Below, one piece after another: positions 3,142-29,472 of a DNA stretch of 64,000 nt; position 1 is the stretch's first letter, and each line of letters starts with the position of its first letter. The stretch is taken from assembly GCA_964016885.1 (NCBI GenBank), contig OZ024743.1, positions 302,932,001 through 302,996,000 on the forward strand, written 5' to 3'. The notes beneath the pieces were generated by a model that had not been told where the DNA came from, made no database searches, and saw nothing but the letters and a program-made list of their open reading frames with translations. The stretch comes from Eledone cirrhosa (Eukaryota). A program made the position numbers and the translations under genes.

Positions 3142-3145
<4 letters not shown>

Positions 3146-3477: not shown

Positions 3478-3669
3478 GTGTGTGTGTGTGCACGCGTGTG
3501 TGTATGCGTGTGTGTGTGTGTGTGTGTGTGTGTGCCTTTGTGTATGCGTGTGTGTGGGTGTGTGTGTAAGTGTCTGTTAGCAAATAAATATATCTCTTTA
3601 TATACGTATATATATATACGTGAATCTATATATACGTGTAAATATATATACGTGTATATATTTATATAC

Positions 3670-3715
<46 letters not shown>

Positions 3716-3738
3716 ATAATATTAATAATAATAATAAT
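3478..3738. repeat. (TG)n, (TA)n, then imperfect (TAA)n forming the left edge of the array
   Basis: Seen directly. Confidence 0.9.
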
Positions 3739-3997
3739 GATTTCATTTATTGGCCACAAGGGCCGACATATAGGGGACAACACAATAGACAGGGACAGTG
3801 GGGGTTTACATAGAGATCGAGTAAGTATAAATAACAAAAAAACAAAAACAAAATAACAATAAAAATACAACAATGAAAGTTCCCCAATAAGAGGGATCAC
3901 CACCCAGGGTTGACTCAAGCACCCCACCAGTCCTGAGCCACCCGACGCTCCTAGGGCACCCGGGAAGGGCACCCCTCTCCTTCTCGAATTCACCAGC

Positions 3998-6900
3998 CTA
4001 CAGGCGCATGATCAGAGTAGGCCCACTCACGCGGGCCATTCTCGCCACATTCACCCACCTTTCAGTAAATGTACTGGGGGGCAGCACTTCTCTCTCCACC
4101 CTCACCTTCCTTTCCAAGTGAAACTTGAAGAAGTTGATGAGGGATTGGCCGAAGAGAAAAGTGTCTGTCTTCAGTCCTTTCAACCTGGTCCACCATGCAA
4201 CCTCTTTCGCTACTGCCACCAGGCAGAGGAAAATTGCCTGCCCTTCCTGACCAAAAGAAGGCGGCGGGTCAATCTTCACTATGGACTCGGACGATAGCCG
4301 GATCCGTTCTACACGCGACAATAGCTGTTCGACATAACCCCACAAGTCAGCAATGCACGGACACTGGACGAGTGCGTGCAGAACGGTTTCGTCGCTCTGC
4401 GCGCATCTCGGGCAGGTTCGTCTGACAGCACTTCCGTGCCTGTAGAGTTTATCCCGAACCGGCAGCGCCCCCCGGTAGCACTGCCAAGCGAGGGATTTCT
4501 GGAAGTTATCCATCGTCCCCGGCTCGAAAGTCCTCCGGAACATACTGGTCAGTTCTACTTCGTTGACGCCCAGAGCCTCTCCTAGTACGTCATCGCACTT
4601 GCCCTCCACTAATCCTCTATAGAAATCTTGAGTGGAAGTTCCACTGACCGCATTGCCCACCTTGCAGAGTGCAGTGAGCGCCTGGCAACATTCCAGATGC
4701 CAGTCGCCCAGTCTCGGTCTCTTCTTGACCCAGGACTGCAGCTCAGTCAAAGAGATGAGCTGCGGAAAGGCCCGTCTAACAAACGGCGACCACACCTGTT
4801 CACCGTTTAGGCAAAATATCTGGAGATGTCGCAGCCTCAGCGCATGCCTGCGCATCATTAGCCACGGCATGCCCAGCCCTCCACGAAGAGGGTGCTGGCA
4901 GCAGATGGACCGCCTCACCAACGGGACCCGTCCCCTCCACAAAAATTTGAAAAGGAGCCGTTCCAAATTGGCGAGGCGTGGACGGGGGCAAGGCACGACG
5001 GTCAGGCGGTAGTAGATGACGGACGCGATGTACGCGTTCGCCACCTCCGCCCGCCCTTTCAGTGATAGCTTTCTCTCAGCCCATTTCTGGGTGAGGTTGG
5101 CTATCCTGCTCGTCACCTCGTCCCAATTCTTATCCACCTGGAGGTCTGGTCCGAACCAAACCCCGAGCAACTTTATCGGTCCGTCTGTCCAGCGCCCAAC
5201 GACGCTGTTGGACGGCATGGACTTGCCTCTCCAGGTGCCGAGCTGCAAGCCCACCGACTTTTCCGGGTTAAGTTTTGCTCCCGTCAACCTTTCATATTCC
5301 TCCAAATGGGTGCGGATCACCTCGATTTCCGAGGTGTCCGACACCATCACGGTGATGTCGTCTGCATAAGCGGACGCAGCCTTTCTGCGTCCCGGTTCGA
5401 GCGGGATGCCCTGCAACAACTCCAGCTTCCGCAGTAGAGGCTCAAGAGTCAATACGTACAGAAGTGAGGAGAGAGGGCACCCTTGACGGACCGATCGAGA
5501 GATCTGAAACGGTTCCGAGAGGTGGCCATTAACTTTGACCACCGAGCGGATGCCGCTGTACATTGCAGCGATCCAGCTTCTGAAGACGGGGCCGAAGCCA
5601 GCCGCCTCGAGGACAGCCTCCAAGTACCGATGGTCGACCCTATCGAATGCTTTCGATTGATCTAAATTGATCAGAGCCCCACCGAAGCCAGGTTTGCACC
5701 CAACCCTCTCTATGATGTATCGCATGAGGTGGAGGTTGTCGTGTATGGACCTGGTCGGGATTGCGCAAGTTTGCGCCTCCCCAACCAAATCTTTGACGAC
5801 AAGCGCCAACCTTTTCGCTAACACCTTGGCCAAAATCTTAAACTCTGTGTTGAGCAGGGTTATGGGCCTGAAATTATCTAGTGTGTCCCTCTTGTTCTCG
5901 TCTTTCCTTATCAGCGTCACTACGCCACGGCTCACAGAACTGGGAATGCTCCCGTTCTGCTGCCAGTTGCAGTAGAGCGCTTCGAGGAGATCGGAGAACA
6001 AGTCTGGCATATTTACGTAAAGCTCGTAGGGCAGACCATCCAAACCGGGTGACTTGCGACTCGAGCAGCCGACAAGGGCGTCCTGAATTTCGGCTGATGT
6101 TATCGGCTCTTCGCAGCGCTCAGCGTCGGCCGTCGAGAGGCGTGGCAAGCCGTCGAGGTAGGGACTGAAGTCCGCCGCCATCTCCGACTCACCCATCCTC
6201 CCGAACAATCGAGCAAAGTGCTGGCGAAAGGCCTCACACATCTGCTTGGAATCGCTCAGTTCGTGTCCATCTCGATCCGTCAAAGACCGAATTGTGGTTT
6301 TATTTCCACGCTGCGTCTCTGCAAAGCGAGCCCATCGGGCAGCTTTGGTTCCCTCGTTCCTCAGAGCACGCGCCTTAGCTCTGACAATGCAACCTTCGTG
6401 TTTCGCATTGAAGAAATGGTCTAGTGCCATTCTCGCCGCTAGCACGTCTGTTGCAATGCCACTACAAATAGCCTCGTCTAACTTAGCTATCAGCCCCTCC
6501 TCCTTTCTATTTTTCTCTATTGCTACTTCTTTGCTAAATCCTATCGAGGTTGCTCTAATCTCTCTTTTGAGTGCCCCCCACCACCTGTTGTTGACAACCC
6601 CCCCTGTCAACTTTTGCTTAACTAAGTTGTTGACCCGGTCCCTGTAAGCTTTACGTGCCGGAAACGACATGTTTAGCTTCCAGTAGCTAGGTCCTAACCT
6701 ACGTGTCTTATCTAGGTCGACCATACAGATCACAAGCTTGTGATCTGAATAGGCAACCGTTTTAAAATGTGGACATCCTACACTATTTCTATCTCTTTTC
6801 CTAATGAAAATCCTATCTATGTACGATCTAGATGACCCTATGCGATTGGTCCAGGTCCATACTGGCGCATTAGGGAAATCTAGTCGGTACCTGTCAGACA

Positions 6901-7417
6901 GTTGAAACTGGCTGATCAGGTACTTGAGGCTTTTGCACCCCCCGCTCCTATCAGATACTCCCACACAATCCCAGCGTGCTTCTAAGATGCCATTCCAATC
7001 CCCTATTAACAGTAAAGGGCGAGACGTAAGCAGAAAGTTTTCCAGGCGCCTAAAGAAGTCCGGCCGACCGGCCCCAGTAGGAGCGTAGACGGCCACCAGT
7101 CTAAAGGCACCACCTTCGCTATTGCTCACGTCCAGGACCACCAACTTTCCGTCAGGATCCCGGAAGATTGACCTTACCTCGAGATCCAGACATTTCCTAA
7201 ACAGCACAGCCACTCCACCTCCCATTCCCGGCCGACTAACAGATGCAAAGATCTGATAATCGTCGAAAATCGGCGCCAGTGCGCGTGTGTCGGAAATTCT
7301 GGTCTCGCTGATGGCAATTACATCCATTCCTAGTGACCTGAGGTCGTTGAGCAAGTGACCTTGCTTCCAGGGCGACCCCAGGCCACGAACATTTAAACTT
7401 CCTACTCTTATGGCCAT
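3998..7417 (-). CDS. Tx1-A ORF2: APE endonuclease + reverse transcriptase + C-terminal CCHC, 1139 aa, intact
   Basis: SLNVRGL, VYAP, GDWN, YIDRIF, SDHK (APE); KSPGLDG, RPITLLN, DQSKAFDRV, QGCPLS, YADD (RT); CPRC..ETVLHALVQC. Confidence 0.95.
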   Translation of the reverse strand: MAIRVGSLNVRGLGSPWKQGHLLNDLRSLGMDVIAISETRISDTRALAPIFDDYQIFASVSRPGMGGGVAVLFRKCLDLEVRSIFRDPDGKLVVLDVSNSEGGAFRLVAVYAPTGAGRPDFFRRLENFLLTSRPLLLIGDWNGILEARWDCVGVSDRSGGCKSLKYLISQFQLSDRYRLDFPNAPVWTWTNRIGSSRSYIDRIFIRKRDRNSVGCPHFKTVAYSDHKLVICMVDLDKTRRLGPSYWKLNMSFPARKAYRDRVNNLVKQKLTGGVVNNRWWGALKREIRATSIGFSKEVAIEKNRKEEGLIAKLDEAICSGIATDVLAARMALDHFFNAKHEGCIVRAKARALRNEGTKAARWARFAETQRGNKTTIRSLTDRDGHELSDSKQMCEAFRQHFARLFGRMGESEMAADFSPYLDGLPRLSTADAERCEEPITSAEIQDALVGCSSRKSPGLDGLPYELYVNMPDLFSDLLEALYCNWQQNGSIPSSVSRGVVTLIRKDENKRDTLDNFRPITLLNTEFKILAKVLAKRLALVVKDLVGEAQTCAIPTRSIHDNLHLMRYIIERVGCKPGFGGALINLDQSKAFDRVDHRYLEAVLEAAGFGPVFRSWIAAMYSGIRSVVKVNGHLSEPFQISRSVRQGCPLSSLLYVLTLEPLLRKLELLQGIPLEPGRRKAASAYADDITVMVSDTSEIEVIRTHLEEYERLTGAKLNPEKSVGLQLGTWRGKSMPSNSVVGRWTDGPIKLLGVWFGPDLQVDKNWDEVTSRIANLTQKWAERKLSLKGRAEVANAYIASVIYYRLTVVPCPRPRLANLERLLFKFLWRGRVPLVRRSICCQHPLRGGLGMPWLMMRRHALRLRHLQIFCLNGEQVWSPFVRRAFPQLISLTELQSWVKKRPRLGDWHLECCQALTALCKVGNAVSGTSTQDFYRGLVEGKCDDVLGEALGVNEVELTSMFRRTFEPGTMDNFQKSLAWQCYRGALPVRDKLYRHGSAVRRTCPRCAQSDETVLHALVQCPCIADLWGYVEQLLSRVERIRLSSESIVKIDPPPSFGQEGQAIFLCLVAVAKEVAWWTRLKGLKTDTFLFGQSLINFFKFHLERKVRVEREVLPPSTFTERWVNVARMARVSGPTLIMRL

Positions 7418-7446
7418 GCTGGCAGGATGAATGGGAGAGGAAAGGT

Positions 7447-9357
7447 TTACTTACCTTCCGGGGTCTTGTGAAGGTCGGGTGGTTCGACCTCCATGGTTTG
7501 TGGGGTTTCTTTTGGGAACCCCTTTAATAGTCTTGACGTGGGTTTTACGTTCGGGGTTCCCACATCCCGAGGAAAGCTCTTTCGAATTTCTTTGTATGAA
7601 GCGAGCGACATTCGCATCAGAAGCAAATTATCTGGTACGCGAAATGTGCTCGCTTCAAATGTTTCCCCGTCTTTTTCGATGTTTGTGCTTCGTGCTACAT
7701 GGGCCATCAATTCCTTGTTGGCCCTTCTGGCAAGCACGAAGTTTTTAATGTTTTGTTGCTCGGGTTTTATTTGTTCGTGTGATTGTGGTGGTGATAGCTT
7801 TGTTAGTGTTGTTTCTATTGTGTCTGCGTTTGTTGTGGGTGGGGTGTCTGTAGTTTCTGATGTTTGTGTGTCTATTTGTTCTTGTGTCTGTTTAGCTTGT
7901 TTGCGTTTGGGGGATTTTGGTGGTTGTGTTGGTGATGCTGTGGGGAAAATGTTTGTGTGGGTGGTGTGTGTATTTTTTTTTGTGGGGGTGTTTGTGCTTT
8001 GTGGATTTCTTTTTTTTTTGTGTTTTGTTTTTTGTATTTTGGGGGACTTTGGTTTTCCCTCATCTTCACTGCTGGAGGATGAGGGGTCTGTGGCTGTGAG
8101 CGTGTTTGTGTCTGAGTGAGTGTTTATGTTCTTGTTCGTGTGTGTATTTTGGGGGGGAGGGGGAATGGGAGAGCTTTCCTCGTTTCCCCCCTGGGTGTGC
8201 AATTTTGGTGGTTCCATTGTTAACGGTGTTGCTGGTGGTCCTTGTCCCGGCGTCGCCAGCAGTGGAATCTTTCGACCCCTTGCGCTTTTCGGCAGTTGAG
8301 GGCAGAAGGCTCGCAAGTGTGTCGTTTCCCCACAAAGGAAACAATGCGGCCTTTTGCCCTCAGTCATTATATGCAACACCCTCCCGTTTTGGAGGCGGAT
8401 GTGGTCCGGGATTGTTTTTACGTTTTCGGGTCTGATTTGGAGCAGTATCTCCAGATCAACCCCGGACCAGTCGTCCCTGGCAGTTCTCGTTGCCTCTACC
8501 GGGACTGTATCCGTTCCTTCCACGATTACGCAACCCAGGAGCCACCACATATCAAGTCCTGGTGGAATCCTGGGAATGCGCACACGTGCTATTCGTTTTC
8601 CCATGTGGGAGGGGTACATTATGACCTTGCTGGTTTTGCAAGGGGTCATTGAATGCTTCACAGCGAGGGCTTCAGACTTGAACAGCACCGAAACGGTGCC
8701 GTATTGCCTGCCCCTCTCTATGAAGTCTGTGTCCTCTCTGATGTATTTCAGTGCGGCTTCTATGTCAGCTTGGGCGATTATCGCTGCCCTCTTTGTCTCT
8801 ACTGAGATGCATCTGAAATGCACCGTTCTTTTTTCCACTGCCTCAATGGCTTCTGCCGGGACAGTTAAGTTTGCCCAGGTCTGCTCTTGATTTATGATTT
8901 TCCAGGCCTGGGCCAACTTTTCCTCTCTGTTGGTTAAGTCGATGCTGTAGCATGGTCTCCTTTTAGCCGCTGCCACAGCAGCGAAAGTGTTCTTGTTGGT
9001 GTTGTCACTGTTGTTGTTCTTGTTGGTGTTGCTGCTGCTATTGCTGTTGTTGTTCTCCCCTGTGTCGTGGTTACCTTCTGTGCTGTTGGCCTTGTTGGTG
9101 CTGCTGCTGTCGCTACTATTACTCTCTGTGCTGTTCGTTTTGTTGGTGCTCTCGCTATTACCACCTTCTGCGCTGTTCGGCTTGTTGGTGTTGGTGTTGT
9201 CGCTGTTACCACCTTCCGCGCCGCTCGGCCCGTTGGTGCTGGCACTGTCGCTGCTCACATTCGTGCTGGTGGCGCTCCTCGCCTCACCTCTCCTCTCAAC
9301 GCTCAAGTCGCCGTTGCACGACAGCAGACCCGCCTCTAGGGGGCGTGGCTCCGCCAT
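7447..9357 (-). CDS. Tx1-A ORF1 (gag-like nucleic-acid-binding protein), 636 aa, intact
   Basis: Directly upstream of ORF2; zinc knuckle CFLCGETTHLRAFC (CX2CX4HX4C); low-complexity S/N/T and P/T/K segments. Confidence 0.85.
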   Translation of the reverse strand: MAEPRPLEAGLLSCNGDLSVERRGEARSATSTNVSSDSASTNGPSGAEGGNSDNTNTNKPNSAEGGNSESTNKTNSTESNSSDSSSTNKANSTEGNHDTGENNNSNSSSNTNKNNNSDNTNKNTFAAVAAAKRRPCYSIDLTNREEKLAQAWKIINQEQTWANLTVPAEAIEAVEKRTVHFRCISVETKRAAIIAQADIEAALKYIREDTDFIERGRQYGTVSVLFKSEALAVKHSMTPCKTSKVIMYPSHMGKRIARVRIPRIPPGLDMWWLLGCVIVEGTDTVPVEATRTARDDWSGVDLEILLQIRPENVKTIPDHIRLQNGRVLHIMTEGKRPHCFLCGETTHLRAFCPQLPKSARGRKIPLLATPGQGPPATPLTMEPPKLHTQGGNEESSPIPPPPQNTHTNKNINTHSDTNTLTATDPSSSSSEDEGKPKSPKIQKTKHKKKRNPQSTNTPTKKNTHTTHTNIFPTASPTQPPKSPKRKQAKQTQEQIDTQTSETTDTPPTTNADTIETTLTKLSPPQSHEQIKPEQQNIKNFVLARRANKELMAHVARSTNIEKDGETFEASTFRVPDNLLLMRMSLASYKEIRKSFPRDVGTPNVKPTSRLLKGFPKETPQTMEVEPPDLHKTPEGK

Positions 9358-9567
9358 GTTTTTTTGAGAAAAAAATTATTATTTTTTTTCAAAATAAAGT
9401 TCAAATATTTGGGCCAAAAGGCCCAAATATTATGAGTTATTCCTTCACAGGATACAAATTAATGTCTTATAATGCTTCAGCGGTACAAAAAATAAACAAT
9501 TCTCTACAATTAATCCTCAAAAATTGCTTACTCACGGAGCTTCAAAAAACGTACATCCACTTTCGTC

Positions 9568-9620
<53 letters not shown>
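9568..9620. repeat. (TAA)n between the 5' ends of Tx1-A and Dong-A1
   Basis: Seen directly. Confidence 0.95.
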
Positions 9621-12600
9621 GGGAAGAAGACGCACGAGGTGGCGGAGGTCATGAAATCGCTCCCGTAAGTTTTGAATTTTTAACATATTTAAATCATTTG
9701 TGAAATAACAACTCTTAGTACAAATGCTACGTAAAGCACCCGGCTTGAGCCCCAAAAAATTCGGACCCAAAATATGTTGTTATAAGGCTCAAATATTCAA
9801 ATATTCAACTTTGTATTGTACACTGTATATCCAAAAAAGAAAATGGCTATAAATGGAAGAAGAACCCCCCCCCCCCCTCCCCTCCTCTGTCTACACTATA
9901 TAGAACAGCCAAACCAGAAACTAGATACACCACCCACCCCATCACCTGTGTACACTAAACACAACAGCCAGATAACGGCATTTTCGCCACCACCGCTCAC
10001 TACTGCCATCATTTCCACCACTATCCCATCACCGCCGCCACCACCCCTTCACTCCTTCACTGCTACCACCGCTACAGCACCATCACTACAGTAATACGGT
10101 CACATCACCGCCACCACTGCCTCGGTATCGCCATCACCACCACCACTCTCTCAGTATCGCTACCGCCGCCAGTCTCCCACTTCTCCTAGCTGGATGCTGC
10201 CAACACATTATAGAATTCCTACTACTAAAAAAGATGAAGGCATCAAAATATATAGATAGACTCAAAAGAAAAAAGGAAAAACAAACAACAAAACCAAAGC
10301 AGCACAGCAACAACAGCAAAAAACGAGAAAATCATAGAAACAAACAAAAAAAAAAACCAAAAAACGTAAAGAAAATAAGAATGAAGAGAGAAGCAGGTGG
10401 ACGGATAGAGAAGAGGGGGGAAAAACTAAAACTTAAAAAACAAAAACTAAGTCAGACATTCGAACACTACATTACAATGAAACTTATGCTTATTCATTTT
10501 TGGGGCCCTTCTGCCTGTGTGTTTGTTTGTTCATGTGTGTTCGTATACAGCGTGGTGATAATGCCACACAAGGGCCAAGTGGAACGGCGAATCCACAGAT
10601 GGCTATGTTACCATACATTCGCCAATCCTCGATAAGAGTGTTTAAATATCGAACATAAACAGTTCGAATAACGGTGAAATGGAGACTAGAACGTCATGTG
10701 ACAGACTCTCACCCAACAGGTGCCCCCTGGCTCAGCAGCAGGAACCTGACTGTCAACCAAATACTGCTGATGTTGGAGGAAGAAGAAGAAGGAAAGGGGC
10801 CAGAACCAACTGGACGAAAGAATTGAATAGAACTGTTATGCAATGTTACCTGAAAAGTAACCCCAAGGAGAGGGGCTACAGGAGACGGATGCATAACATC
10901 TGGAACGAGATTGGTCTATTTAAATTAGATGAACAAAAATTGGCCGGGCAGGCTCGGGTAATAAGAACTAATGGGTGGATAAGCGAGCTGGAACTGGAGG
11001 AACTGAGCAGAGAGAATGGCTTGGAGATGGCGGGTGTAGTATGCCAGACAAGCGAGCCAGTGGGAAATGAAGGTGAAGAGGTTCTGAGAACGGAGGAACC
11101 ACCCGAAGCAGACAATGATCTGAATACTGAGATAAATAATACCTGGAACAGAGATACGGCCACTGAGGAGATGAATGCTGACGGGCTAGGACAAGATTCG
11201 GTTGACATCCTAAATTTAGTGGTAGATGAATTGAACAATGATAGTGGGAGACCTATAAACCTAAAATTTGTAGACAGGAAAAAGTTAAAAGAAACAACAG
11301 CTAAGGTAAACAAAGTCATCCCATACCTTGAGGCGTGGAGCCTTCACCAGTGCAACAGTATCCTCAAAGCAACAGCAAATACGGTGAGGAAACTACTTGG
11401 TATAAAAGCGAGAGGAAACAACAGACAAGAAAGAGCAGAGCCGTGGTGGAAGAAACGACTGAGTGGTCAAATCGGGGAAATGAGAAATGACATAGGAAAG
11501 CTTGAGTCACTACTGAATGGGACACTAAAAAACATAGGCACTAAAAATAGACTGGAAATAAAGTACAAAACTAGGAGGAAAAAGCTAAATATTATCATAG
11601 AGGAACTGAAGCAACGCATTGTAGCAAAGAGTGCAAAAATCAGGCGATACGAGAACAGAGTCAGTCAGTATAAACAGAACCGCATGTTCGACAACAACCA
11701 GAAGATGCTGTTTGGACAGCTTGAGGAGAAAGAAAGAGGCAACGACTTGATCCCTGGGGCGGAGCAAACTAAAACATTCTGGAGAGGAATATGGGAGCAG
11801 GATGTTAGACATAATGTCCAGGCAGGGTGGATTGAGACAGTACAGAGGGAGATCGGTGAGCAGGCACACCAACAAACTGATTTGAGTATCACAGTTGAAA
11901 CTCTTAAGGGGCAGGCCAAAAAACTAACCAACTGGAAATCACCAGGCCCAGATGGTGTGCAGGGGTATTGGATTAAAAATTTAACATCCCTCCACCCGAA
12001 GCTGACGGCCATGTTCAATGACTGCTTGGTGTCGGGTGAGGTGCCAGAGTGGTTGACAAAAGGTACCACAGTTCTGATAATGAAAGACCGAATCAAGGGT
12101 AATGATGTTACCAACTATAGACCTATCACATGTCTGTCCGTAATGTGGAAACTGTTGACGAGCATTGTGTCTGAAGAAATCTACCATCACCTCCACACAA
12201 ACAACTTGTTACCGGACGAACAGAAAGGATGCCGAAAGAAGTCACGTGGTACAAAGGACCAGTTACTTATTGATAAGATGGTAATGGGGAATTGCAGGAG
12301 GAGACACACTGATCTTGCCATGGGATGGATAGACTACAGAAAGGCATTTGACATGGTCCCTCATTCTTGGATCACCAAAAGCCTGGAGATCTTCGGGTTG
12401 GCAGATAACACCAGACAGTTGCTGGGCAGGAGTATGGGGTCCTGGGAGACAGAGTTGACATCAACTGGAGTATCCTTGGGAAGCGTGAAGATCAAGAGAG
12501 GTATCTTCCAGGGAGATAACCTGTCCCCTCTGTTGTTTGTCCTTGCCCTGATGCCCTTGACCATTATGCTGCGAAAAGTGAGAGCAGGATACAAGCTGGG

Positions 12601-14145
12601 AAAGGGAGAGCTTACCATCAATCACCTCCTCTTCATGGACGATCTTCAGCTCTTCGGGAAAAGTGAGAAGTAGTTGGATGTGCTTGTTGACACTGTCCGT
12701 ATTTTCGGCAGTGATATATGTATGCAGTTTGGTATTAGGAAATGTGGAGTCATTGTGATGAGGAGGGGTAGGTTGACCAGAAGTAACGGGATCCAGATAC
12801 CAACAGGTGAGATGATAAAGGAAATTGACTCTGAGGAAGGATACAAGTATTTGGGCGTTCTGGAGGCTGATGGCATAAAGAACAAAAAAATGAAGGAATT
12901 GTTAAGAACTGAATACATTCGGAGAGTAAGGAGCGTATTGAAGTCACATCTGAACAGCAGAAATGCCATAAGCGCAGTAAATTCCCGAGCTGTGTCTATT
13001 ATTAGGTACAGCGCGGGAATTCTGAGATGGAATGTTGCTGAACAAAAAGAAATGGATAGGAAGACTAGGAAGCTATTGACTATCTACAACATCTTCCACA
13101 AGAGGAGTGATGTCGATAGACTCTACCTAAGGAGATCTGACGGTGGAAGAGGTTTTATCAGCATAGAGGACTGTGTTCAGATGGAGAAAAACAACCTACC
13201 CAAATACGTGACCTATAGTAAGGAGCCAATGCTCAGAACTGTACTGAAAGAGGGGACAGTAGGCCAGGGGATGTCCAAGGAGGAAATAACATCAAGGAGG
13301 AAGAGCAGCCTTAAGGGAAAATCCCTTCATAGTACCTTCTTTGAGAAAACTGAATTTAGAGATCCACAGACATTTAACTGGTTGAGAAGAGGAGACCTCA
13401 AAAAGGCTACAGAAGGAATGCTAATGGCTGCGCAGGAGCAGGCCCTCAAAACGAAGTGGTTGAAGCACCATATTTACAAGGAGGAGGCTAGCCCACTGTG
13501 CAGGATCTGTGGAGAGAGAGAGGAGACTGTGGCTCACATTGTGTCCGAGTGTAAACACCTAGCCCAGACCCACTATAAGGGCTGGAGACACGATGTGATG
13601 GGCAGGGTGATCCACTGGCACCTGTGCAAAGTAAACAATCTACCACATTCTGAGAAATGGTATGAGCATAGGCCAGAGGCGGTGATGGAGAACAGTCAGG
13701 TGAAGGTGCTGTGGGATTTTAGGATACAGACGGACAAAAAACTGGAACACAATAGACCTGACCTGGTGGTTGTGGACAAAGAAAAAAGATCGTGTCTGAT
13801 TGTCGATGTGGCCTGCCCGTTCGACACGAGAGTGCAAGAGAAGGAGAGGGAGAAAATTAACCGATACCAGGACCTAAGGTGGGAGGTGAAAAGGATTTGG
13901 AACTGCCATGAAGTCAAAGTGAACCCGATTGTCATAGGCGCACTGGGGACTATCTCCAAAAGTTTCCAGGGATGGTTAAAGAAAATCGACCCCTTCACGC
14001 TTTTTGGAACGCTTCAAAAGGCATGCTTGCTAGGAACAACAAGAACCCTCCGATACGTCCTGAATATCTGAGGCTGCAGGTAGTGGCTTGATATTCATTC
14101 CAACGGACTTTCCAGTTAACCAACATCAATGACTGAGATTCAAGG
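9621..14145 (+). mobile_element. Full-length R4/Dong-clade RLE retrotransposon, family A copy 1
   Basis: Leader starting GGGAAGAAGAC, single-ORF RT-CCHC-RLE architecture, 3' end GACTGAGATTCAAGG + (TAA)n; near-identical to 14220-19058. Confidence 0.9.
10679..14071 (+). pseudogene. Dong-A1 ORF with one nonsense codon (TAG at 12671-12673)
   Basis: AAG TAG TTG versus AAG GAG TTG in copy 2; same frame continues to 14071. Confidence 0.9.
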
Positions 14146-14154
14146 AATAACAAC

Positions 14155-14219
<65 letters not shown>
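14146..14219. repeat. (TAA)n tail/target, starting with CAA variants
   Basis: Seen directly. Confidence 0.95.
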
Positions 14220-14385
14220 GGGAAGAAAACGCACGAGGTGACGGAGGTCATGAAATCGCTCCCGTAAGTTTTGAATTTTTAACATATTTAAATCATTTGT
14301 GAAATAACAACTCTTAGTACAAATGCTACGTAAAGCACCCGGCTTGAGCCCCAAAAAAATTCGGACCCAAAATATATTGTTATAA

Positions 14386-15017
14386 GGCTCAAATATTCAA
14401 ATATTCAACTTTGTATTGTACACTGTATATCCAAAAAAAAAAAAAAATGGCTATAAATGGAAGAAGAAGAACCCCCCCCCCCCCACTATAAAGGACAGCT
14501 AAACTCACCAACACCAGAAACTAGATACACCACCCACCCCATCATCTGTGTACACTAAACACAACAGCATTTTCACCTTCACCACCACCGCTCACTACGG
14601 CCATCATTACCACCACTATCCCATCACCGCCGCCACCACCCCTTGACTCCTTCACTGCTGCTGCCACCGCTACAGCACCATCACTACAGTAATACGGCTC
14701 AAATATTCAAATATTCAACTTTGTATTGTACACTGTATATCCAAAAAAAATAAAATGGCTATAAATGGAAGAAGAAGAACCCCCCCCCCTCCTCTCCTCT
14801 GGCTACACTATATAGGACAGCGAAACTCACCAACACCAGAAACTAGATACACCACCCACCCCATCATCTGTGTACACTAAACACAACAGAATTTTCACCT
14901 TCACCGCCACCGCTCACTACGGCCATCATTACCACCACTATCCCATCACCGCCGCCACCACCCCTTGACTCCTTCACTGCTGCTGCCACCGCTACAGCAC
15001 CATCACTACAGTAATAC
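14386..15017 (+). repeat. Tandem duplication of a ~310-320-bp leader unit (14386-14695, 14696-15017)
   Basis: Both units start ggctcaaatattcaaatattcaactttg and end cactacagtaatac; single unit in copy 1. Confidence 0.9.
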
Positions 15018-18984: not shown

Positions 18985-19085
18985 GGCTGCAGGTAGTGGC
19001 TTGATATTCAATCCAACGGACTTTCCAGTTAACCAACATCAATGACTGAGATTCAAGGAATAACAATAACAATAATAATAATAAT

Positions 19086-21097
19086 GATTTCTTTATTAAC
19101 CACAAGGGTTTACATAAAGTAGACATTAAGGACAGTGCAGGACAATGCAGGACGGTACAAATGGGCATTTCTGCGTGTAAAAAAAACAAAAACAGAGGAT
19201 GTAACAAAAAATAACAATGAAAATAACAATGAAAAATTCCCCAATAGGGGGGAGACTTCGGATGGACATTTGTGGAGAAAGCCCAGTAAAAAGCCACAAT
19301 GACCCTGACCACCAAGGCAAGTGCCCTCTCCCAGTTTTCCACCTTTAGTTTACAGATATATACTCAGAGTCGGCCCATTCACTCGGGCCATTCTTGTTTC
19401 TCTCACCCATCTTTCAACAAAATGCTGGGAAGAGAGCACTTCCTTCTCTACTCTGATTTTCCTTTTCAAATGAAATTTGAAAAAGTCAATCAGAGCATCA
19501 CCGAAGAGGTAAGTGCTCGTCTTCAGCCCTTTCAAACGTGTCCACCATACTATCTCTTTCGCCATGGCCACCAGACAGATAAAAAATGCCTGCCCTTCCC
19601 GGCTAAAGGAGGAGGGCGGGGCAATCCTCACGATAGACTCAGACGATAGCTGGATCCGTCCTAAACGCGACAGCAGGTGTTCGACATAAACCCACAAGTC
19701 AGCAATTTTCGGACACTGGACGAGTGCGTGCAGGACGGTTTCGTCGCCCTGCGCGCATCTCGGACATGCCCGGCTGACGGCACCTCCATGCCTGTAGAGT
19801 TTATCCCAAACTGGCAAGGCTCCTCGGTAGCACTGCCAGGCCAGAGATTTCTGGAAGTTGTCCATAGGCCCTGGCCCGAAAGTTCTTCCGAAGAGATTGG
19901 CTAGTTGATTTTCGTCGACGCCTAGAGTTTCCCCAAGTACGTCGTCGCTCTTCCCCTCCACTAATCCTCTATAGAACGCCGAGGTGGAGTTTCCACCGAT
20001 CACATTGCCCGATTGGTCGAGGGCTGTGAGCGCCTGAAGACATTCCAGTCTCCAGGCGCCCCCTCTCGGTCTTCGCTTGACCCAGGACTGCAGCTCCGTC
20101 AAGGAAACGAGCTGGGGAAAAACGCGTCTAGCAAACGGCGACCACACCTGATCACCGTCGAGGAAGAGGTGGAGATGTCGTAGCCTGAGCGCGTGCCTGC
20201 GCATCATCAGCCACGGCATGCCCAGCCCTCCACGTAGCGGGTGTTGACAACAGATGGACCGCCTGACCATCGGAGCACGTCCCTTCCACAAAAAGCGAAA
20301 GAGCAAACGCTCCAGCGCAGTCAGGCGAGGCTTAGGACAAGGTACGACGGTCAGGCGGTAGCAGATGACGGACGCGATGTACGCGTTAGCCACCTCCGCT
20401 CGACCTTTCAGGGATAGCTTCCTCTCGGCCCATTTCTGGGTGAGAGAAGCCACCCTGCTCGTCACCTCGTCCCAGTTTTTGTCCGTCTGGAGGTCCGGAC
20501 CGAACCAGACCCCTAGCAATTTAACCGGTCCGTCCGTCCAGCGTCCGACGACGCTGTTGGACGGCATGGACCTGCCTCTCCAGGTGCCGAGCTGCAGGCC
20601 CACTGACTTTTCCTGGTTGATCATTGCTCCTGTCACCGCTTCGTATTCTCTTAGTGTAGTGCCGATCGCCTCGATGTGTTTGGCGCTCGACACCACTACG
20701 GTGACATCGTCCGCATATGCTGACACTGATCTTCCGCATCCTAGTTCGCGCAGGACTCCCCTCAACGTCTCCAGTTTGTGCAGTAATGGCTCGAGAGTCA
20801 ATACGTACAAGAGGGACGAGAGGGGACATCCTTGGCGGACCGAGCGCATGATGTTGAACGGTTCCGACAGGTGACCGTTCACTCTCACCACAGAGCAGAT
20901 GTCGCTGTGCATGGCAGCGATCCAGCCTCTGAAGACGGGCCCAAAGCCAGCCGCCCTCAGGACGGCCGCTAGGTAACGATGGTCGACCCTATCGAAAGCT
21001 TTCGACTGATCTAAATTGATCAAGGACCCACCCGTGCCAGGTTCCTTAGCTACCCTCTCTATGATGTATCGCATGAGGTGGAGGTTGTCGTGGATGG
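19086..21097 (-). mobile_element. 5'-truncated Tx1 element of a second subfamily (Tx1-B); ORF2 remnant open 21097-19350
   Basis: Homologous to Tx1-A ORF2 from SIHDNLHLMRY to the end; different 3' UTR but same terminus AATAAAGAAATC; (TAA)n on both sides. Confidence 0.92.

Positions 21098-21161
<64 letters not shown>
21098..21161. repeat. (TAA)n
   Basis: Seen directly. Confidence 0.95.
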
Positions 21162-21959
21162 GGGAAGAAGACACACGAGGTGGTAGAACGTCACGAAATT
21201 GCTCCCGTAAGTTTTCTGATTTTTAACATATTTAAATCAATTGTGAAAGAACAATTCTTAGCACAAATGTTGCATAAAGGCACTGAATGAGGTCCCATAA
21301 AGTTTCCGATCCATATTATATTGTTGTATCGCTCAAATATTCAATTTTGTATTATATATTTTGTATTCAAAAAAAGAAAATGGTTATAAATGGAACAAAA
21401 CACCCTCTGTCTACACTATATAGAACAGCGGCAATTTCAATTTCACCAACCCCAGAAACTTGATACACTACCATCACACCAGATAACGGCAATTTCACAG
21501 GCATCATAATAATAATTACTATTATGATTGTCTCAAATTTAAAAAAATGTTTAATTCAAATTTTACGGGAATATGTCAACACAAAATATAATGAAAATAT
21601 ATATTAAACATACGAACACAAACTCATAGATACTATATCAGTAACCACAACACCACCGCTGCCACCACCCCACCACATCCAACATCGCCGCCACCACTCA
21701 TTCAGTGCTACTGACACTATTCCCCTGTTAACTCGAGAGAGAAAAGGGAAGGTGGCGGTAGCACTAGACAAGAGAGAGGCTAGCAAAAGATATAAATAGA
21801 TTGACTTGGTGACCTTGCCACGGCCAAACGTCTACATCAACAATTATGGGACTGCTGGCTCACCCCTTCCTCACCAACAATATAAAAAGCCCCGGCACCA
21901 CCACCGACATAGCCAGCAGCAATAACAGCCAACTACAACAAAAAGTATATTATATTATT

Positions 21960-22010
21960 GTAATGCACTGGGTGATTGCTGGCCTTGTGCCTGAAGTGGA
22001 GATAATTATT
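21960..22010 (+). mobile_element. 3' SINE fragment inside the Dong-B leader
   Basis: gtaatgcactgggtgattgctggccttgtgcctgaagtggagataattatt matches the SINE 3' end. Confidence 0.65.
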
Positions 22011-22257
22011 AATAATTTCATTCTTAAGCCACGCAATGCTCACATTAAGGAACCACTCATGATAATAACAATTTAAAAAAAAACAACAAAAAGAAAACCC
22101 CGTGACCAAGAAATACCGGGATGGGGGCCGGCGGGGAATAGCCATGTCTCTAGGGGAGAACGACCCCTCTAGTCTTGGTTGACACGCGTTCTAGAAGTGG
22201 TAACACGAAATGATTACCCCTTGGCGGATAAGGATAAAACGCGACAAAATAAAGTAA

Positions 22258-25200
22258 ATGTATAATGATAAAATCTCATACCGGATCGGCCGTCACCCGG
22301 GTAAAAAAGTGCCGCGTCCCTCAGAGAGGAACCAGACTGGGGTCGAAAAATCAGCTAATGGTTCAAACCTTCCCATCACTTCGGAGCTGGAGACCTCCCT
22401 TAACCGGAATACTCCTACTGTTGGCCTTCCATGCTCACCACCAAGAAATCCAAAGAAAAAGAGAGAAAAATGGTCAAGGGAAGATAATAAAGAAGTCCTT
22501 GAGGCTTTCTACACTGCCATGTACTACCCATCAAATACATCGAATACAGAACAAACATATATCAACTGGAAAAAGGAACATCCCGAAAACAGAGGCTATA
22601 TTGACAGTAACAAACTAGCCAATATACGAAGAAATATTGTAAGAAAAAAGTTACTAAGTGATATAGAAATTGATCAGATCAAGCTAGTAGCACAAAGTCA
22701 GGGAAGGGAAAATGAAGCATGTGTCAGTGAAAACGAGGTAAACTGTAACACTTCGAATCCCAGGGTTGGGGCGGAATCACTGGCAACAGAACAAATTAAA
22801 GAAAGGAGCGAAAAAGTGGAGGGAGTGCATGCTCAGGATGAAACTCCAAATGAAAATAATGAGATCGTAAATGTTAAAGAAATGAATGAGAATGAACTTG
22901 CCAACTTGAAGGATGAAATTATGATCAAATGGATGAAAATGGAAGAATCTGACATGGGGCAACGAGACACCCTCCCTAAGATCCAGAACTCCAAACAGAA
23001 CCAAAAGATAATACACAAGACTAACATAATTCTCAAAAACATTATCATCACAAACAAACTAAACATTACTGATTTAAATCATCTCTATTATGCATCGGCT
23101 AAAGTCACCACTCACTTATGTGGAGTGAAGATGAAAAAACAAAGGAATTCCCACAAGAAATCTACTTGGCAAGATAACATCAATCGCCAAATAAACCTTC
23201 TCCGATCTGACATAGACATTTTAACAAACTATAAAGTAGGTGAACATGTTAAACAAACTAAACTTAGAAAATTGAAAAAAAAGTACAGTATAAGATCAAC
23301 ATGTGACATAGACATGCTGATAGAAACAATCAAGCAAAAAGTGTCGGCCAAAGCTGCTCGTATAAGGCGCTTTGAAAAACGATCTAGATTCTATAAGGAC
23401 AATAATATGTTCAAAAACAACCAAAGAAACTTCTACAGAAAAATTGGTAAGTCAACAATAACTGCTAAATCAATACCACCCAAGGAGGAAGTGCAAGAAT
23501 TCTGGGAAAAGATCTGGGCCGAAGAAAAAGTTCATAACATACATGCCTCATGGATAGACAGACAAATGAAAGAAACAGCTCACCTTGAAGAACAAACATG
23601 GGAAAATATAACAGTTGAACAGCTGCGCTTGGCTCTAAGTAAAACCAGCAAATGGAAATCCCCAGGAAAAGACAAAATACAAAACATTTGGATAAATGCC
23701 TTCACAGAGTCTCATGATCTGTTAGTCAAACTTTACAATGAAATAGTTAAGGAGCCAGATAAGATACCATCATGGCTAGTTAACGGCATTACATTCCTGC
23801 TACCGAAGAATGATGAGACAAACAATCCCAAAAATTACAGACCGATAACCTGCTTGACGACTATGTATAACATTTTAACATCAGTCCTAACTGAATACAC
23901 ATATGACCACCTGATAACAAATGACCTATTTCCCATTGAGCAGAAAGGGTGTAAACGAGGCTCATATGGCTGTAAGGATCAGCTTCTGGTTAACAAAATG
24001 ATACTGGAAGATTGTCATAAAAGACACAAAAATCTATCGATTGCTTGGATAGATTATAAAAAAGCATTCGATAGTTTGCCACAAAGTTGGATTGAAAAAT
24101 GTTTAGAGATTTTCAAAATATCCCCCCTTGTCAGGAGGTTTTTGTCATTCAGTATGAGGACATGGAGAACGACACTCCTTTTGAATAGTGAAACAAAATC
24201 ACTGGAAGCTGGAGAAGTTAACATTAATTGTGGAATTTTTACGGGTGACTCTTTATCACCGCTTTTATTCTGCATCGCACTTATACCATTAAGTAAAATG
24301 CTCAATGAAACAAAACATGGATATAGAGTCTATGACAAAACCATTAATCACCTGTTCTACATGGATGACCTGAAACTATTTGCAAAAAATGATGAACAAT
24401 TGCAAGGGCTATTATCCACTGTGAAGCAGTTCAGTGATGACATGAAAATGGAGTTTGGACTGGATACATGCGCCAAAGCAACGTTCACCAGAGGAAAGCT
24501 GCTGAAGAGTTCAGACATTAATCTTGATCGGGGGAACGTGATAAGAGAGCTTGATCAAGAAAAAACTTACAAATATCTAGGTGTTTGTGAAGGAGACGGA
24601 ATCAAGCACTCGACAATGAGGGAAAGGATAAGGAAGGAATGTTACCGCAGAGTCAGAGCAATCTTAAGGACGGAATTGAATGCAAGGAATAGGATCGATG
24701 CCATAAACACGCTTGCCATACCAGTAGTAACCTACAGTTACAATGTCATCAACTGGTCAAGCACAGAGATCCGTAGGCACGATACAAAAATCCGAAAATT
24801 CTTAACCATGCACAGAATGCATCACCATAAGGCAGACCAAGATAGAATATATCTCCCTAGGATAGAAGGAGGACGTGGGTTAATCCAGTTAGACATTGCG
24901 TTGAAAACTGCAACAATTGGATTATCCACATATCTAAGGGAATCACATGATTGGATGATCAAACTCGTTTTGAAACACGAAAGCACCAACAGATCATATT
25001 CCATACAGAAGATGCACAAAGATACAGTAATGGACTACAAGTTTCAGAAGTCCCATTTACTGCTGAAATGGAAAACACAGAAAAAGCAAAGCAGGTAAAA
25101 GTAACTGCAAAGAAAGAACTGCTACAGAAACTGGCTAAGAAATGGCAAGAAAAGCCTCTGTATGGAAAATACCCAGAGCGAGCTAACAATCCTGATGTTG

Positions 25201-25907
25201 ACAAAACTTTACCCCATCAGTGGTTGGCATCCTCTGGACTGAAATCGGAGACTGAAGGACTGATTATATCGGCACAAGATCAGTGTCTGCCAACAAAAAA
25301 TTACCAAGCCAACATAATAAAAAATGGGTGCAGCCCATTATGCCGTGTATGCAAAAAACAACCAGAGACCATTGACCATATAATTTCAATGTGCAGTCCT
25401 ATAGCTCCAACCGAATACCTAAACAGGCATGACAGAGCTGCACAATACATACATTGGATAATGTGTAAGCATTTTGACCTGCCCCATCAAAAGAATTGGT
25501 GGGAGCATCAACCACCTCCTATACTTGAAAAAGATCACATCTCAATCTTGTGGAACTTTAGCATCCAAACAGACCGAAAAATAGATGCAAATAGACCTGA
25601 TATATTATTGAAGGACTTTCAAAGGAGGGTATGCCTGCTAATTGATATGTCTGTTCCAATAGACAAGAATGTATCTATAAAAACATTTGAAAAATTGAGC
25701 AAGTATAAGGACCTGGAGATAGAAATTGGAAAAATGTTGAAATTGAGAACTAAAACAATACCAGTGGTTGTAGGCGCTCTGGGAATGATACCTAAGGGGT
25801 CTAACGACTACTTATCGCAAATCCCAGGAAACCCGCGTATAGGAGAAATACAAAAGATAGTACTAATGGGAACTGCCCATATACTAAGGAAGATCCTGTC
25901 AATATAA
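22258..25907 (+). pseudogene. Dong-B ORF with one frameshift near 25005-25012
   Basis: ORF 22258-25098 (WKSPGKD, YRPITCL, YMDD) overlaps ORF 24951-25907 (CRVC..HIISMC, RHD, RPDILL..IDMSVP..K..KY). Confidence 0.88.
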
Positions 25908-26046
25908 GTACATCACAAGTCTAAACACTAAGGATGCATGTGTGAATATGTATGTTCTTTCTTGAACATGGCGGACCTTGTTGTCTCTTGATGTCACTGG
26001 TTGTGACTTGGTGATAACTCGTATAAACATAAAGCAAGATAAATGC

Positions 26047-26047
26047 A

Positions 26048-26113
<66 letters not shown>
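26047..26113. repeat. (TAA)n
   Basis: Seen directly. Confidence 0.95.
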
Positions 26114-28125
26114 CTGTCCGTAATGTGGAAACTGTTGACGAGCATTGTGTCTGAGGAAATCTGCCATCACCTCCACACAAACAACTTGTTACCGGACGAA
26201 CAGAAAGGATGCCGAAAGAAGTCACGTGGTATAAAGGACCAGTTGCTTATTGATAAGATGGTAATGGGGAATTGCAGGAGGAGACACACTGATCTTGCCA
26301 TGGGATGGATAGACTACAGAAAGGCATTTGACATGGTGCCTCATTCCTGGATCACCAAAAGCCTGGAGATCTTTAGGGTGGCGGATAACATCAGACAGTT
26401 GCTAGGCAGGAGTATGGGGTCCTGGGAGACAGAGTTGACATCAACTGGAGTATCCTTGGGAAGCGTGAAGATCAAGAGAGGTATCTTCCAGGGAGATAGC
26501 CTGTCCCCTCTGTTGTTTGTCCTTGCCCTGATGCCCTTGACCATTATGTTGCGAAAAGTGAGAGCAGGATACAAGTTGGGAAGGGGAGAGCTTACCATCA
26601 ATCACCTCCTCTTCATGGACGATCTTAAGCTCTTCGGGAAAAGTGAGAAGGAGTTGGATGTGCTTGTTGACACTGTCCGTATTTTCAGCAGTGATATATG
26701 TATGCAGTTTGGTATTGGTAAATGTGGAGTCATTGTGATGAAGAGGGGTATGTTGAGCAGAAGTAACGGGATCCAGATACCAACAGGTGAGATGATAAAG
26801 GAAATTGACTCTGAGGAAGGATACAAGTATTTGGGCGTTCTGGAGGCTGATGGCATAAAGAACAAAAAAATGAAGGAATTGTTAAGAACTGAATACATTC
26901 GGAGAGTAAGGAGCGTATTGAAGTCACATCTGAACAGGAGAAATGCCATAAGCGCAGTAAATTCCCGAGCTGTGTCTATTATTAGGAACAGTGCGGGAAT
27001 TCTGAGATGGAATGTTGCTGAACAAAAAGAAATGGATAGGAAGACTAGGAAGCTATAGACTATCTACAACATGTTCCACAAGAGGAGTGATGTCGATAGA
27101 CTCTACCTAAGGAGATCTGACGGTGGAAGAGGTCTTATCAGCATAGAGGACTGTGTTCAGATGGAGAAAAACAACCTATACAAATACGTGACCTATAGTA
27201 AGGAGCCAATGCTCAGAACTGTACTGAAGGAGGGGACAGTAGGCCAAGGGATGTCCAAGGAGGAAATAACATCAAGGAGGAAGAGCAGCCTTAAGGGAAA
27301 ATCCCTTCATAGTACCTTCTTTGAGAAAACTGAATTTAGAGATCCACAGACATGGAACTGGTTGAGAAGAGGAGACCTCAAAAAGGCTACAGAAGGAATG
27401 CTAATGGCTGCGCAGGAGCAGGCCCTCAAAACGAAGTGGTTGAAGCACCATATCTACAAGGAAGAGGCTAGCCCACTGTGCAGGATCTGTGGAGAGAGAG
27501 AGGAGACTGTGGCTCACATTGTGTCCGAGTGTAAACACCTAGCCCAGACCCACTATAAGGGCTGGAGACACGAAGTGATGGGCAGGGTGATCCACTGGCA
27601 CCTGTGCAAAGTAAACAATTTACCACATTCTGAGAAATGGTATGAGCATAGGCCAGAGGGGGTGATGGAGAACAATCAGGTGAAGGTGCTGTGGGATTTT
27701 AGGATACAGACGGACAAAAAACTGGAACACAATAGACCTGACCTGGTGGTTGTGGACAAAGAAAAAAGATCGTGCCTGATAGTGGATGTGGCCTGCCCGT
27801 TCGACACGAGAGTGCAAGAGAAGGCGAGGGAGAAAATTAACCGATACCAGGACCTAAAGTGGGAGGTGAAAAGGATTTGGAACTGCCATGAAGTCAAAGT
27901 GATCCCGATTGTCATAGGCGCACTGGGGACTATCTCCAAAAGTTTCCAGGGATGGTTAAAGAAAATCGGCCTCTTCACGCTTTTTGGAACGCTTCAAAAG
28001 GCATGCTTACTTGGAACAGCAAGAACCCTCCGATACGTCCTGAATATCTGAGGCTGCAGGTAGTGGCTTGATATTCAATCCAACGGACTTTCCAGTTAAC
28101 CAACATCAATGACTGAGATTCAAGG
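26114..28125 (+). mobile_element. 5'-truncated Dong-A copy 3 (nonsense TAG at 27056-27058)
   Basis: Starts inside RT (ctgtccgtaatgtgg); near-identical to copies 1 and 2; same 3' end. Confidence 0.93.
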
Positions 28126-28137
28126 AATAACAACAAC

Positions 28138-28196
<59 letters not shown>

Positions 28197-29470: not shown

Positions 29471-29472
29471 TA

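Follow-up and report, generated by a model that had tools for sequence, protein, structure and literature searches.

The targeting of TAA repeats by Dong elements, that of microsatellites by Tx1 elements, the convergence of restriction-like endonuclease (RLE) and APE elements on one target and the opposite polarity of two families in one repeat are already known. Dong of the R4 clade (Bombyx Dong, DongAg and DongBg) and Rex6 are single-ORF RLE elements that occupy TAA repeats (PMC3812793, PMC1635306), and Bombyx Dong has a 5' HDV-like ribozyme (PMC3774820). Microsatellite-specific Tx1 elements include Kibi in (TC)n, Koshi in (TTC)n and crocodilian elements in (TTCC)n/(TTTC)n, and Tx1-1_ACar is telomere-specific (PMC4494074, PMC10088271). 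TRAS and SART, both R1-clade APE elements, occupy the telomeric repeat (TTAGG)n in opposite directions (PMC7265360), and Utopia (RLE) and Keno (Tx1, APE) reached the same U2 snRNA gene target in parallel (PMC4640811). In Octopus vulgaris, Dong-R4 and L1-Tx1 elements have both been recently active (PMC13282606, Table 1).

The array analyzed here spans 3.7-28.2 kb of a 64,000-nucleotide window of Eledone cirrhosa contig OZ024743.1 (host genome, 3.0 Gb). As in Dong/R4, single-ORF RLE elements lie in TAA repeats, but they form two families (35-38% protein identity) whose 5' ends have about 370 bp in common and which are interspersed with an APE element, and a 5' HDV-like ribozyme was not clearly found in either Dong-A or Dong-B. 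As with Kibi and Koshi, L1-group APE elements are aimed at a simple repeat, but this repeat is (ATT)n, which the portions of text considered from PMC4494074 and PMC10088271 do not name for Tx1, and there are at least four 5' variants, thousands of copies and a target common to an RLE clade. As with TRAS and SART, two families use opposite strands of one repeat, Dong-Tx1 neighbours being antiparallel in 116 of 117 cases within 340 fetched loci, but the nucleases are unrelated, one being an RLE, and the repeat, (TAA)n, is a microsatellite dispersed over many contigs. Utopia and Keno likewise join RLE and APE elements on one target, but theirs is a low-copy gene that is not multiplied by insertion, both have the same orientation because their 3' flank is identical, and the passages on them in PMC4640811 do not describe mixed arrays. 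A Tx1 element aimed at (ATT)n on Dong's target was not found in the literature, the supplements and Fig. 3 of PMC4494074 and Repbase Reports aside, either of which may include an (ATT)n-specific Tx1.

ORF analysis, self-BLAST and Pfam identified in the window six non-LTR retrotransposons with nothing between them but (TAA)4-21, in the order and orientation of the original prediction, the four R2-group Dong-like copies reading along TAA and the two L1-group Tx1-like copies along ATT. At the left edge, after a (TA)n run, a (TAA)5 tract (3723-3738, pure over 3723-3737) adjoins the 3' end of full-length Tx1-A (3739-9567, minus strand). Head-to-head with it across a (TAA)17 tract (9568-9620, pure over 9570-9620) lies full-length Dong-A1 (9621-14156, plus strand), followed head-to-tail across (TAA)21 (14157-14219) by Dong-A2 (14220-19072, plus strand), which is also full-length. 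A (TAA)4 tract (19073-19085, pure over 19073-19084) separates Dong-A2, tail-to-tail, from Tx1-B (19086-21098, minus strand), a copy 5'-truncated inside the RT that retains 2.0 of about 6.0 kb and whose truncated 5' junction meets, across (TAA)21 (21099-21161), the head of full-length Dong-B, a second RLE family (21162-26049, plus strand). A further (TAA)21 tract (26050-26112) links the Dong-B tail to Dong-A3 (26113-28139, plus strand), 5'-truncated inside the RT, and (TAA)19 (28140-28196), followed by (GAA)4, forms the right edge. The joints between elements and tracts hold no unassigned DNA, because each element is matched over its whole length by genomic copies: Tx1-A positions 1-5832 were matched in 20 of 20 rows among the matches listed, and many copies of Dong-B and Dong-A match from 3 nt or less of the 5' end. 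Outside the array, a second, older cluster (45855-50283) comprises SINE copies on the ATT strand, linked by (TAA)7 and (TAA)4, and a decayed Dong-A-like copy, 85% identical to Dong-A, that ends in (TAA)22; it obeys the same polarity rule.

Tx1-A has the Tx1 layout, with an open ORF1 (7447-9357) carrying a CCHC zinc knuckle and an open ORF2 (3998-7450) carrying APE, RT and a C-terminal CCHC (PF03372, PF00078 and PF13966). Its closest fetched copy is 99.8% identical, and the Tx1-B ORF2 protein is 75% identical to that of Tx1-A. Membership in the L1 group is indicated by the best PDB match, human L1 ORF2p (residues 4-853, E 2.5e-57; R2, 4.6e-22), and we provisionally take the clade to be Tx1 on the basis of the original prediction and of motifs, the protein homologues being almost all unnamed. 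The single Dong ORF encodes an RT, a CCHC finger and a PD..D..K restriction-like endonuclease (CCHC and RPD..D motifs are present); the C-terminal part of Dong-A2 aligns to the R2 endonuclease, and the RT is nearer to the R2 group (PDB match E 3.6e-29) than to L1 (1.5e-13). Given the TAA target and the motifs, these elements presumably belong to Dong/R4. Searches of protein homologues, clusters and atlases yielded no clade names, and metagenomes gave three loci of relatives with flanks, all short, distant and uninformative. Words of Tx1-A also occur in sequencing runs of other organisms, from which we draw no conclusion.

Dong-A2 has an open 1141-aa frame (15559-18984) and a 322-bp tandem duplication in its 5' UTR (14382-15019), and it is 95.7% identical to Dong-A1, which has one in-frame stop (12671-12673), as has Dong-A3 (27056-27058); Dong-B has a frame break near 25.0 kb. 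Open frames of at least 1100 aa were present in 25 of 32 Tx1-A, 22 of 28 Tx1-B, 9 of 19 Dong-A and 13 of 18 Dong-B copies among those fetched at full length, a set enriched for best matches. The tails of Dong-A open with a few AAC units. The 5' block common to Dong-A and Dong-B, GGGAAGAAG, was considered as a separate small element and rejected, since genomic copies include it. A home-made HDV-like ribozyme descriptor gave one weak candidate, in Dong-B from base 1 onward, and nothing for Dong-A, with no convincing match in an Rfam scan; neither descriptor nor Rfam found such a ribozyme at Tx1 5' ends.

The target and the polarity were then tabulated beyond the window. Throughout the genome, (ATT)4 directly precedes 315 of 324 Tx1-A 5' ends, well above the published rule that a target-specific family has more than 20% of its flanks in one sequence type (PMC4494074). 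At tract-abutting ends in the 340 loci, polarity was kept by 394 of 396 Dong and 393 of 398 Tx1 ends, and at 5' ends alone by 168 of 168 Dong and 177 of 178 Tx1, which is evidence of targeting, since tails cannot explain it. Hence the shared target, the opposite polarity and the two endonuclease classes that had been predicted hold genome-wide, and among full-length copies neither random orientation nor a general lack of 5' ATT was seen. Dong 3' ends carry (TAA)≥3 in 63 of 63 rows (60 distinct copies) and Tx1 3' ends carry (ATT)≥3 in 75 of 84, with the opposite strand in 0 of 84. The Tx1 junctions have a fixed phase, (ATT)n|G...C|(ATT)n, with TATT|G at 126 of 128 distinct 5'-complete ends across four variants. 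Tracts of three units or fewer flank full-length Tx1 copies at 2 of 84 5' sides and 19 of 84 3' sides. The two classes also cluster, 39 of 102 Dong ends having a Tx1 end no more than 10 kb away (null mean 6.0, maximum 15), and four 3'-end patterns have 17,278 exact matches in the genome. What these counts show is a fixed opposite orientation of Dong and Tx1 in (TAA)n, with tract at their flanks, clustering of the two and a constant phase at Tx1 junctions.

Could Tx1 insert without preference and carry (ATT)n at both ends of its RNA, Dong alone targeting the resulting tracts? The 5' tract of full-length Tx1-A never falls below 5 units (32 of 32 copies), as such a model would have it, and 11 of 34 truncated copies lack the target; however, of 147 full-length Tx1 heads that adjoin a tract, 57 have a Tx1 tail on its far side, different variants being seen paired, which needs insertion into a tract, and 9 have a SINE tail there. 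Moreover, ATT is present in empty paralogues, that is, copies of other repeat families that carry (ATT)n at the site (L047 versus L051 and L043 versus L207; the screen gave a match for 53 of 84 copies, mostly element-element junctions or self, with two clean cases among the matches listed). In one such family, Tx1-A and Dong-A insertions run opposite to each other (L047 and L050; L204). Since, in addition, ATT stands at 16 of 34 truncated copies against a chance level of 0.4% for (ATT)≥3 ending no more than 10 nt from a position picked at random (window 28300-64000), we regard this explanation as very unlikely.

The truncated copies had been put forward as proof that the repeat is a target. 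Both of those in the window do adjoin (TAA)21, with microhomology of just 1-2 nt, but elsewhere the argument is sound for only part of the truncated Tx1 copies. The 16 of 34 truncated Tx1-B-type copies with target at the 5' junction comprise 13 with (ATT)≥3 and 3 with an ATT-initiated duplication; 2 have TTC, 1 the opposite strand, 4 a Dong fragment without tract and 11 nothing, although one of these 11 (L165) is ATT-flanked by eye, and the 34 include two non-independent tandem-duplicate sets. As about half carry the target, the single truncated Tx1 copy of the window overstates the strictness. Truncated Tx1-A-type copies of long loci had (ATT)≥3 in 0 of 11, although most are 81-93% from the references, which makes the ends of these copies uncertain. 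Truncated Dong 5' ends have TAA in 19 of 24 distinct copies, and two units in 2 more. Truncated Tx1 copies are thus less strict, and part of the specificity of Tx1 likely comes from pairing of the RNA with its target. Non-repeat target duplications starting with ATT measure 16 nt (L194), 15 nt (L299), 11 nt (L177) and 6-7 nt (L189), and one older copy (L280) has an 8-nt duplication without ATT.

Carried to its extreme, pairing would do everything: the Tx1 nuclease would be an ordinary, loose T/A-nicking L1 type, its specificity and polarity would come from pairing of (AUU)n at the RNA ends with the target, and the common landing pad would be genuine but only the Dong nuclease specific. The frequent lack of ATT at truncated 5' junctions agrees with this, as do targets of just one or two ATT units (L177, L189 and L299), a loop region of the Tx1 APE that aligns without gaps to the L1 endonuclease, and the RNA-target annealing proposed for SART1 and R1Bm (PMC7265360). 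Nevertheless, the C|ATT phase of the 3' junction does not vary, including at sites that gained no extra tail units, and swaps of the SART1 and TRAS1 endonucleases transfer specificity (PMC7265360), so that we hold pairing as the sole determinant to be rather unlikely.

With respect to the arrays, growth mainly by recombination between TAA tracts, tandem duplication or passive survival in regions of low recombination appears highly improbable. Some arrays elsewhere in the genome do look like tandem duplications, as suggested by a row of 10 Tx1-A heads set about 5.84 kb apart (C1:423.37-423.42 Mb), a 369-bp duplicate in L331 and a repeated junction in L063. But the six copies of the window represent four families, its three Dong-A copies are 2-4% apart with closer relatives elsewhere, so that neighbours are less alike than dispersed copies, and a polarity rule between clades cannot arise by duplication. 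A misassembly joined through TAA tracts is scarcely credible: a simple repeat does lie at every joint, but the copies are distinct, an argument that comes from the sequence itself, junctions of these types are found again at hundreds of loci, and the polarity belongs to each element's own ends and cannot be created by mis-joining.

We therefore consider it probable that Dong-like and Tx1-like elements both target (TAA)n, prime reverse transcription on opposite strands and would leave, with each insertion, tract on either side for the next. As target-primed reverse transcription suggests, Dong would nick the TTA strand and Tx1 the TAA strand; the Tx1 nick, which cannot be placed exactly within the repeat, probably falls between T and A (5'-AAT/AA-3'). 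The proposed Tx1 nick resembles that of L1, TTTT/AA. The TRAS1 nick, TT/AGG, also falls at T/A (PMC7265360). The tract begins 6-7 nt after AATAAA (in Tx1-A, the ATT tail begins after 7 nt), but the junctions showed no poly(A); the Tx1 RNA would thus end in a read-through (AUU)n tail, which may pair with the nicked primer. Full-length RNA would also hold upstream (AUU)n that guides a precise 5' join, and truncated cDNAs devoid of it might join through 1-4 nt of microhomology, with duplications of 6-16 nt or deletions. Tails, duplications and slippage would renew the target, and occasional unequal recombination could add tandem copies. The self-renewing landing pad of the original prediction, used by two endonuclease classes, is thus supported as to target, polarity and classes; that the nucleases make the choice is presumed, and for Tx1 much of the selection could be done by RNA-DNA pairing.

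A bolder reading, which we advance only tentatively, makes the microsatellite a working part of Tx1 (half promoter, 5' joining handle and 3' primer-binding tail) and has a guild of Tx1, Dong and ATT-polar SINEs hold and regenerate a large share of the long TAA tracts. Tx1 transcription would start about 18 nt upstream, within the (ATT)n target. Three of the four Tx1 variants, whose heads otherwise cannot be aligned, have a DPE-like RGWYV at +10; Dong has it at +8, and each of the six families has GT[AG]AG between +29 and +46. Of the first 100 long TAA tracts listed, 44 have a listed element end no more than 7 kb away, where 4 would be expected. A partnership of the SINE with Tx1 through a common 3' end was not established, since 82-198 of 2000 shuffles scored at least as high in local alignment; for the SINE and the Dong-B 3' end, 20 of 2000 did.

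These results add (ATT)n to the targets of L1-group APE retrotransposons and provide a natural case in which two unrelated nucleases use opposite strands of a single 3-bp repeat within one genome and at scale. Because many copies are young and intact, the shares of endonuclease and RNA-DNA pairing in target choice become testable on the simplest substrate. TAA markers and nearby read mapping are confounded in such genomes and call for caution, and the finding offers a mechanism for their retrotransposon hotspots and for the turnover of their TAA microsatellites.

Seven uninterrupted TAA tracts, each 4-21 units long, divide window 3723-28196 into six intervals that hold, in order, Tx1-A (-), Dong-A1 (+), Dong-A2 (+), a truncated Tx1-B (-), Dong-B (+) and a truncated Dong-A3 (+). 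Because a search of the own genome (3.0 Gb, 1796 contigs) returned copies matching every interval end to end, the interval boundaries are element ends, and these copies, the ORFs and the self-comparison all agree with the six elements, their order and their strands in the original prediction. The Tx1-A ORF2 contains APE, RT and zf-RVT domains, has human L1 ORF2p as its closest solved structure and is 75% identical to that of Tx1-B; the closest solved structures of Dong-A are R2 proteins, the C-terminal PD..D..K region included, and the two clades share only about 25% identity over RT. We take the clade names Tx1 and Dong from the earlier labels and characteristic motifs rather than from placement among named references. 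Elsewhere in the window are further dispersed repeats, with an internal tandem of 140 bp (28902-29494 and 60177-60754), and a 700-bp inverted pair of 81% identity (30354-31041 and 32735-33383).

Exact 3'-end patterns matched 7,591 Tx1-B-type, 1,469 Tx1-A-type, 4,105 Dong-A and 4,113 Dong-B ends in the genome, the Tx1 patterns picking up sister variants as well. Genome-wide, Tx1-A 5' ends directly followed (ATT)4 in 315 of 324 cases, and among 128 distinct 5'-complete Tx1 ends in fetched loci, 126 showed the TATT|G junction and 125 at least three units. In consecutive unselected Tx1-B-type matches on contig C1, at least three ATT units were present at 75/84 3' ends (opposite strand, 0/84) and at the 5' end of all 20 resolved full-length copies, the background rate at a random position being 0.4%. 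Dong 3' ends carried at least three TAA units in 63/63 rows, representing 60 distinct copies, and 32 of 46 5'-complete Dong ends had them within 3 nt; at many of the remainder, short GAA or duplicated pieces intervene before the tract. In a table of 599 distinct tracts of at least four units, drawn from the window and 340 loci picked via elements and conditional on tract presence, Dong ends read along TAA in 394/396 and Tx1 ends along ATT in 393/398 (5' ends only, 168/168 and 177/178, respectively), and Dong-Tx1 neighbours across a single tract were antiparallel in 116/117. These data showed that Dong and Tx1 share a target in fixed opposite polarity, and that the polarity proposed from the window holds genome-wide. 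Some copies of both clades adjoin (TTC)n/(GAA)n with matching polarity (L183, L185, L305, L090, L255; window 28197-28208), and tracts that mix TAA and GAA may provide a secondary target; (TTC)n, found here at some Tx1 and Dong copies, is the known target of Koshi.

Among listed positions in C1:0-55.5 Mb, 39 of 102 Dong ends had a Tx1 end within 10 kb, compared with a mean of 6.0 and a maximum of 15 in 2000 local 1-Mb shifts, and the nearest Tx1 end was antiparallel for 37 of these 39. Same-clade neighbours were parallel (Tx1-Tx1, 48/54; Dong-Dong, 49/51). The genome contains 44,770 TAA tracts of at least six units ending in one of three phases; of the 100 that head the list, 16 adjoin a listed 3' end and 44 have one no more than 7 kb away, against a null mean of 4.1. 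Because clustering and tract proximity to elements recur, the window array is typical of a widespread class. Ten Tx1-A heads (5' ends) follow one another head to tail about every 5.84 kb (G000:C1:423367687-423420172), and similar Tx1-B-type runs occur at C1:55.42-55.45 Mb. Such homogeneous tandems, also seen at L331, suggest that duplication contributes to some arrays, but the window copies belong to four families and have closer relatives elsewhere in the genome.

The repeat had also been proposed to be a target and not just a tail. After removal of three double-counted rows, 19 of 24 distinct truncated Dong copies carried at least three TAA units at the 5' junction and two more carried two units; therefore, the TAA repeat is a target for Dong. 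For Tx1 the outcome was less uniform. The 34 resolved truncated Tx1-B-type copies (30 more extend past the 2.4-kb loci) showed at least three ATT units in 13, an ATT-initiated duplication in 3, TTC in 2, the opposite strand in 1, an adjoining Dong fragment without tract in 4 and nothing at the junction in 11. Among Tx1-A-type matches in 40 long loci, at least three ATT units were found in 28/29 full-length versus 0/11 truncated copies; the truncated ones are mostly old variants that match the reference sequences poorly. Internal deletions are common in the Tx1 copies examined, so some ends without a tract may have arisen by deletion after insertion. In empty paralogues of unrelated repeats, (ATT)n is already present at the site (L047 versus L051, L043 versus L207), and one such repeat family carries Tx1-A in L047 and L050 and, oriented the other way, Dong-A in L204. 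At sites with a short tract, 6-16 nt of target are visibly duplicated, starting with ATT (L177, L189, L194, L299). Of 147 full-length Tx1 heads at tracts, 57 face a Tx1 tail (3' end) and were counted as for Tx1 targeting; differing Tx1 variants occur among head/tail pairs across one tract. The case for (ATT)n as the Tx1 target is good but less clean than that for Dong. Dong and Tx1 fragments also meet head to head without a tract (L169, L198, L332, L339, L222), which suggests deletions across antiparallel junctions, and at L199 a truncated Tx1 5' end adjoins a short telomere-like TAACCC repeat.

A 190-bp SINE, presumably tRNA-like, lies at window 45855-46200 and at many loci, and its tract-adjoining ends run along ATT in 87/90, which is the Tx1 polarity. 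At loci chosen near elements, SINE heads without a preceding Tx1 end had at least three ATT units before them in 18/63, versus the 0.4% background. Its tails provide target, and Tx1 may mobilise the SINE; similarity between the SINE and Tx1 3' ends was not significant. This SINE may also point to an octopus-like host.

The polarity of both clades is probably explained by nicking combined with pairing between RNA and target. Target-primed reverse transcription takes as its primer, in the 3' flank, the strand that runs opposite to element sense; by this rule the primer would be the TAA strand for Tx1 and the TTA strand for Dong. The L1 endonuclease nicks at T/A steps, and Tx1 would nick at such a step, 5'-AAT/AA-3', the exact position being uncertain because of tail pairing. 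The C|ATT phase is constant at Tx1 3' junctions, and this junction and the ATT-initiated duplications fit that nick; TRAS1 also nicks at a T/A step (PMC7265360). The Tx1 3' terminus just ahead of the tract is AATAAA(T)GAAA[TAG]C and no poly(A) was found among the junctions examined, suggesting that Tx1 RNA reads through, ends in (AUU)n and anneals to the primer. Full-length Tx1 copies have tracts of three units or fewer at 2/84 5' ends versus 19/84 3' ends, and those with a short 3' tract (e.g. L045, L168, L261, L272), unlike truncated copies, lack a non-repeat duplication; the simplest reading is that full-length Tx1 RNA carries upstream (AUU)n that would anneal at the 5' join, comparable to the upstream 28S sequence retained by R2 RNAs (PMC3774820). 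Every insertion would leave tract on both sides, so that arrays would grow by repeated insertion. Three of the four Tx1 variants have a DPE-like RGWYV at +10, noted post hoc; given DPE spacing relative to the transcription start, Tx1 transcripts would begin some 18 nt within the tract.

At least four Tx1 5' variants exist in the genome. Two variants (L052, L175, L171) are 97% alike in the ORF2 half and unalignable over the 5' 2.2 kb, which we read as probable swapping of 5' UTR/ORF1 modules. About 370 bp of 5' end are common to Dong-A and Dong-B at 73% (window 9621-9990, 14220-14540, 21162-21500), versus 35-38% for their proteins, and may reflect either 5' module exchange or strong constraint. 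When the six families are compared over their opening 60 nt, a GCTC motif, a splice-donor-like GT[AG]AG at +29 to +46 (6/6) and RGWYV at +8 to +10 (5/6) possibly represent a common internal promoter layout.

A TAA target is a feature of known Dong (PMC3812793; PMC1635306) as of the Dong-like elements here. Tx1 families target TC, TTC, TTCC and TTTC (PMC4494074) or telomeric repeats (PMC10088271), Utopia (RLE) and Keno (APE) converge on one U2 site (PMC4640811), and TRAS and SART are antiparallel to each other (PMC7265360), as are Dong and Tx1 here. Octopus repeat papers report abundance or activity for Dong-R4 and L1-Tx1, the parts of them covered containing no target analysis of these elements (PMC13282606; PMC8967140; PMC9115989), and the part of PMC3747384 covered contains nothing on ATT. 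Neither an ATT-specific Tx1 nor mixed Dong/Tx1 arrays were found in the literature searched, Repbase Reports, subscription papers and the PMC4494074 figure and supplements lying outside its reach. The sharing of TAA repeats by Dong and Tx1 is real, extends across the genome and combines known behaviours in a new way.
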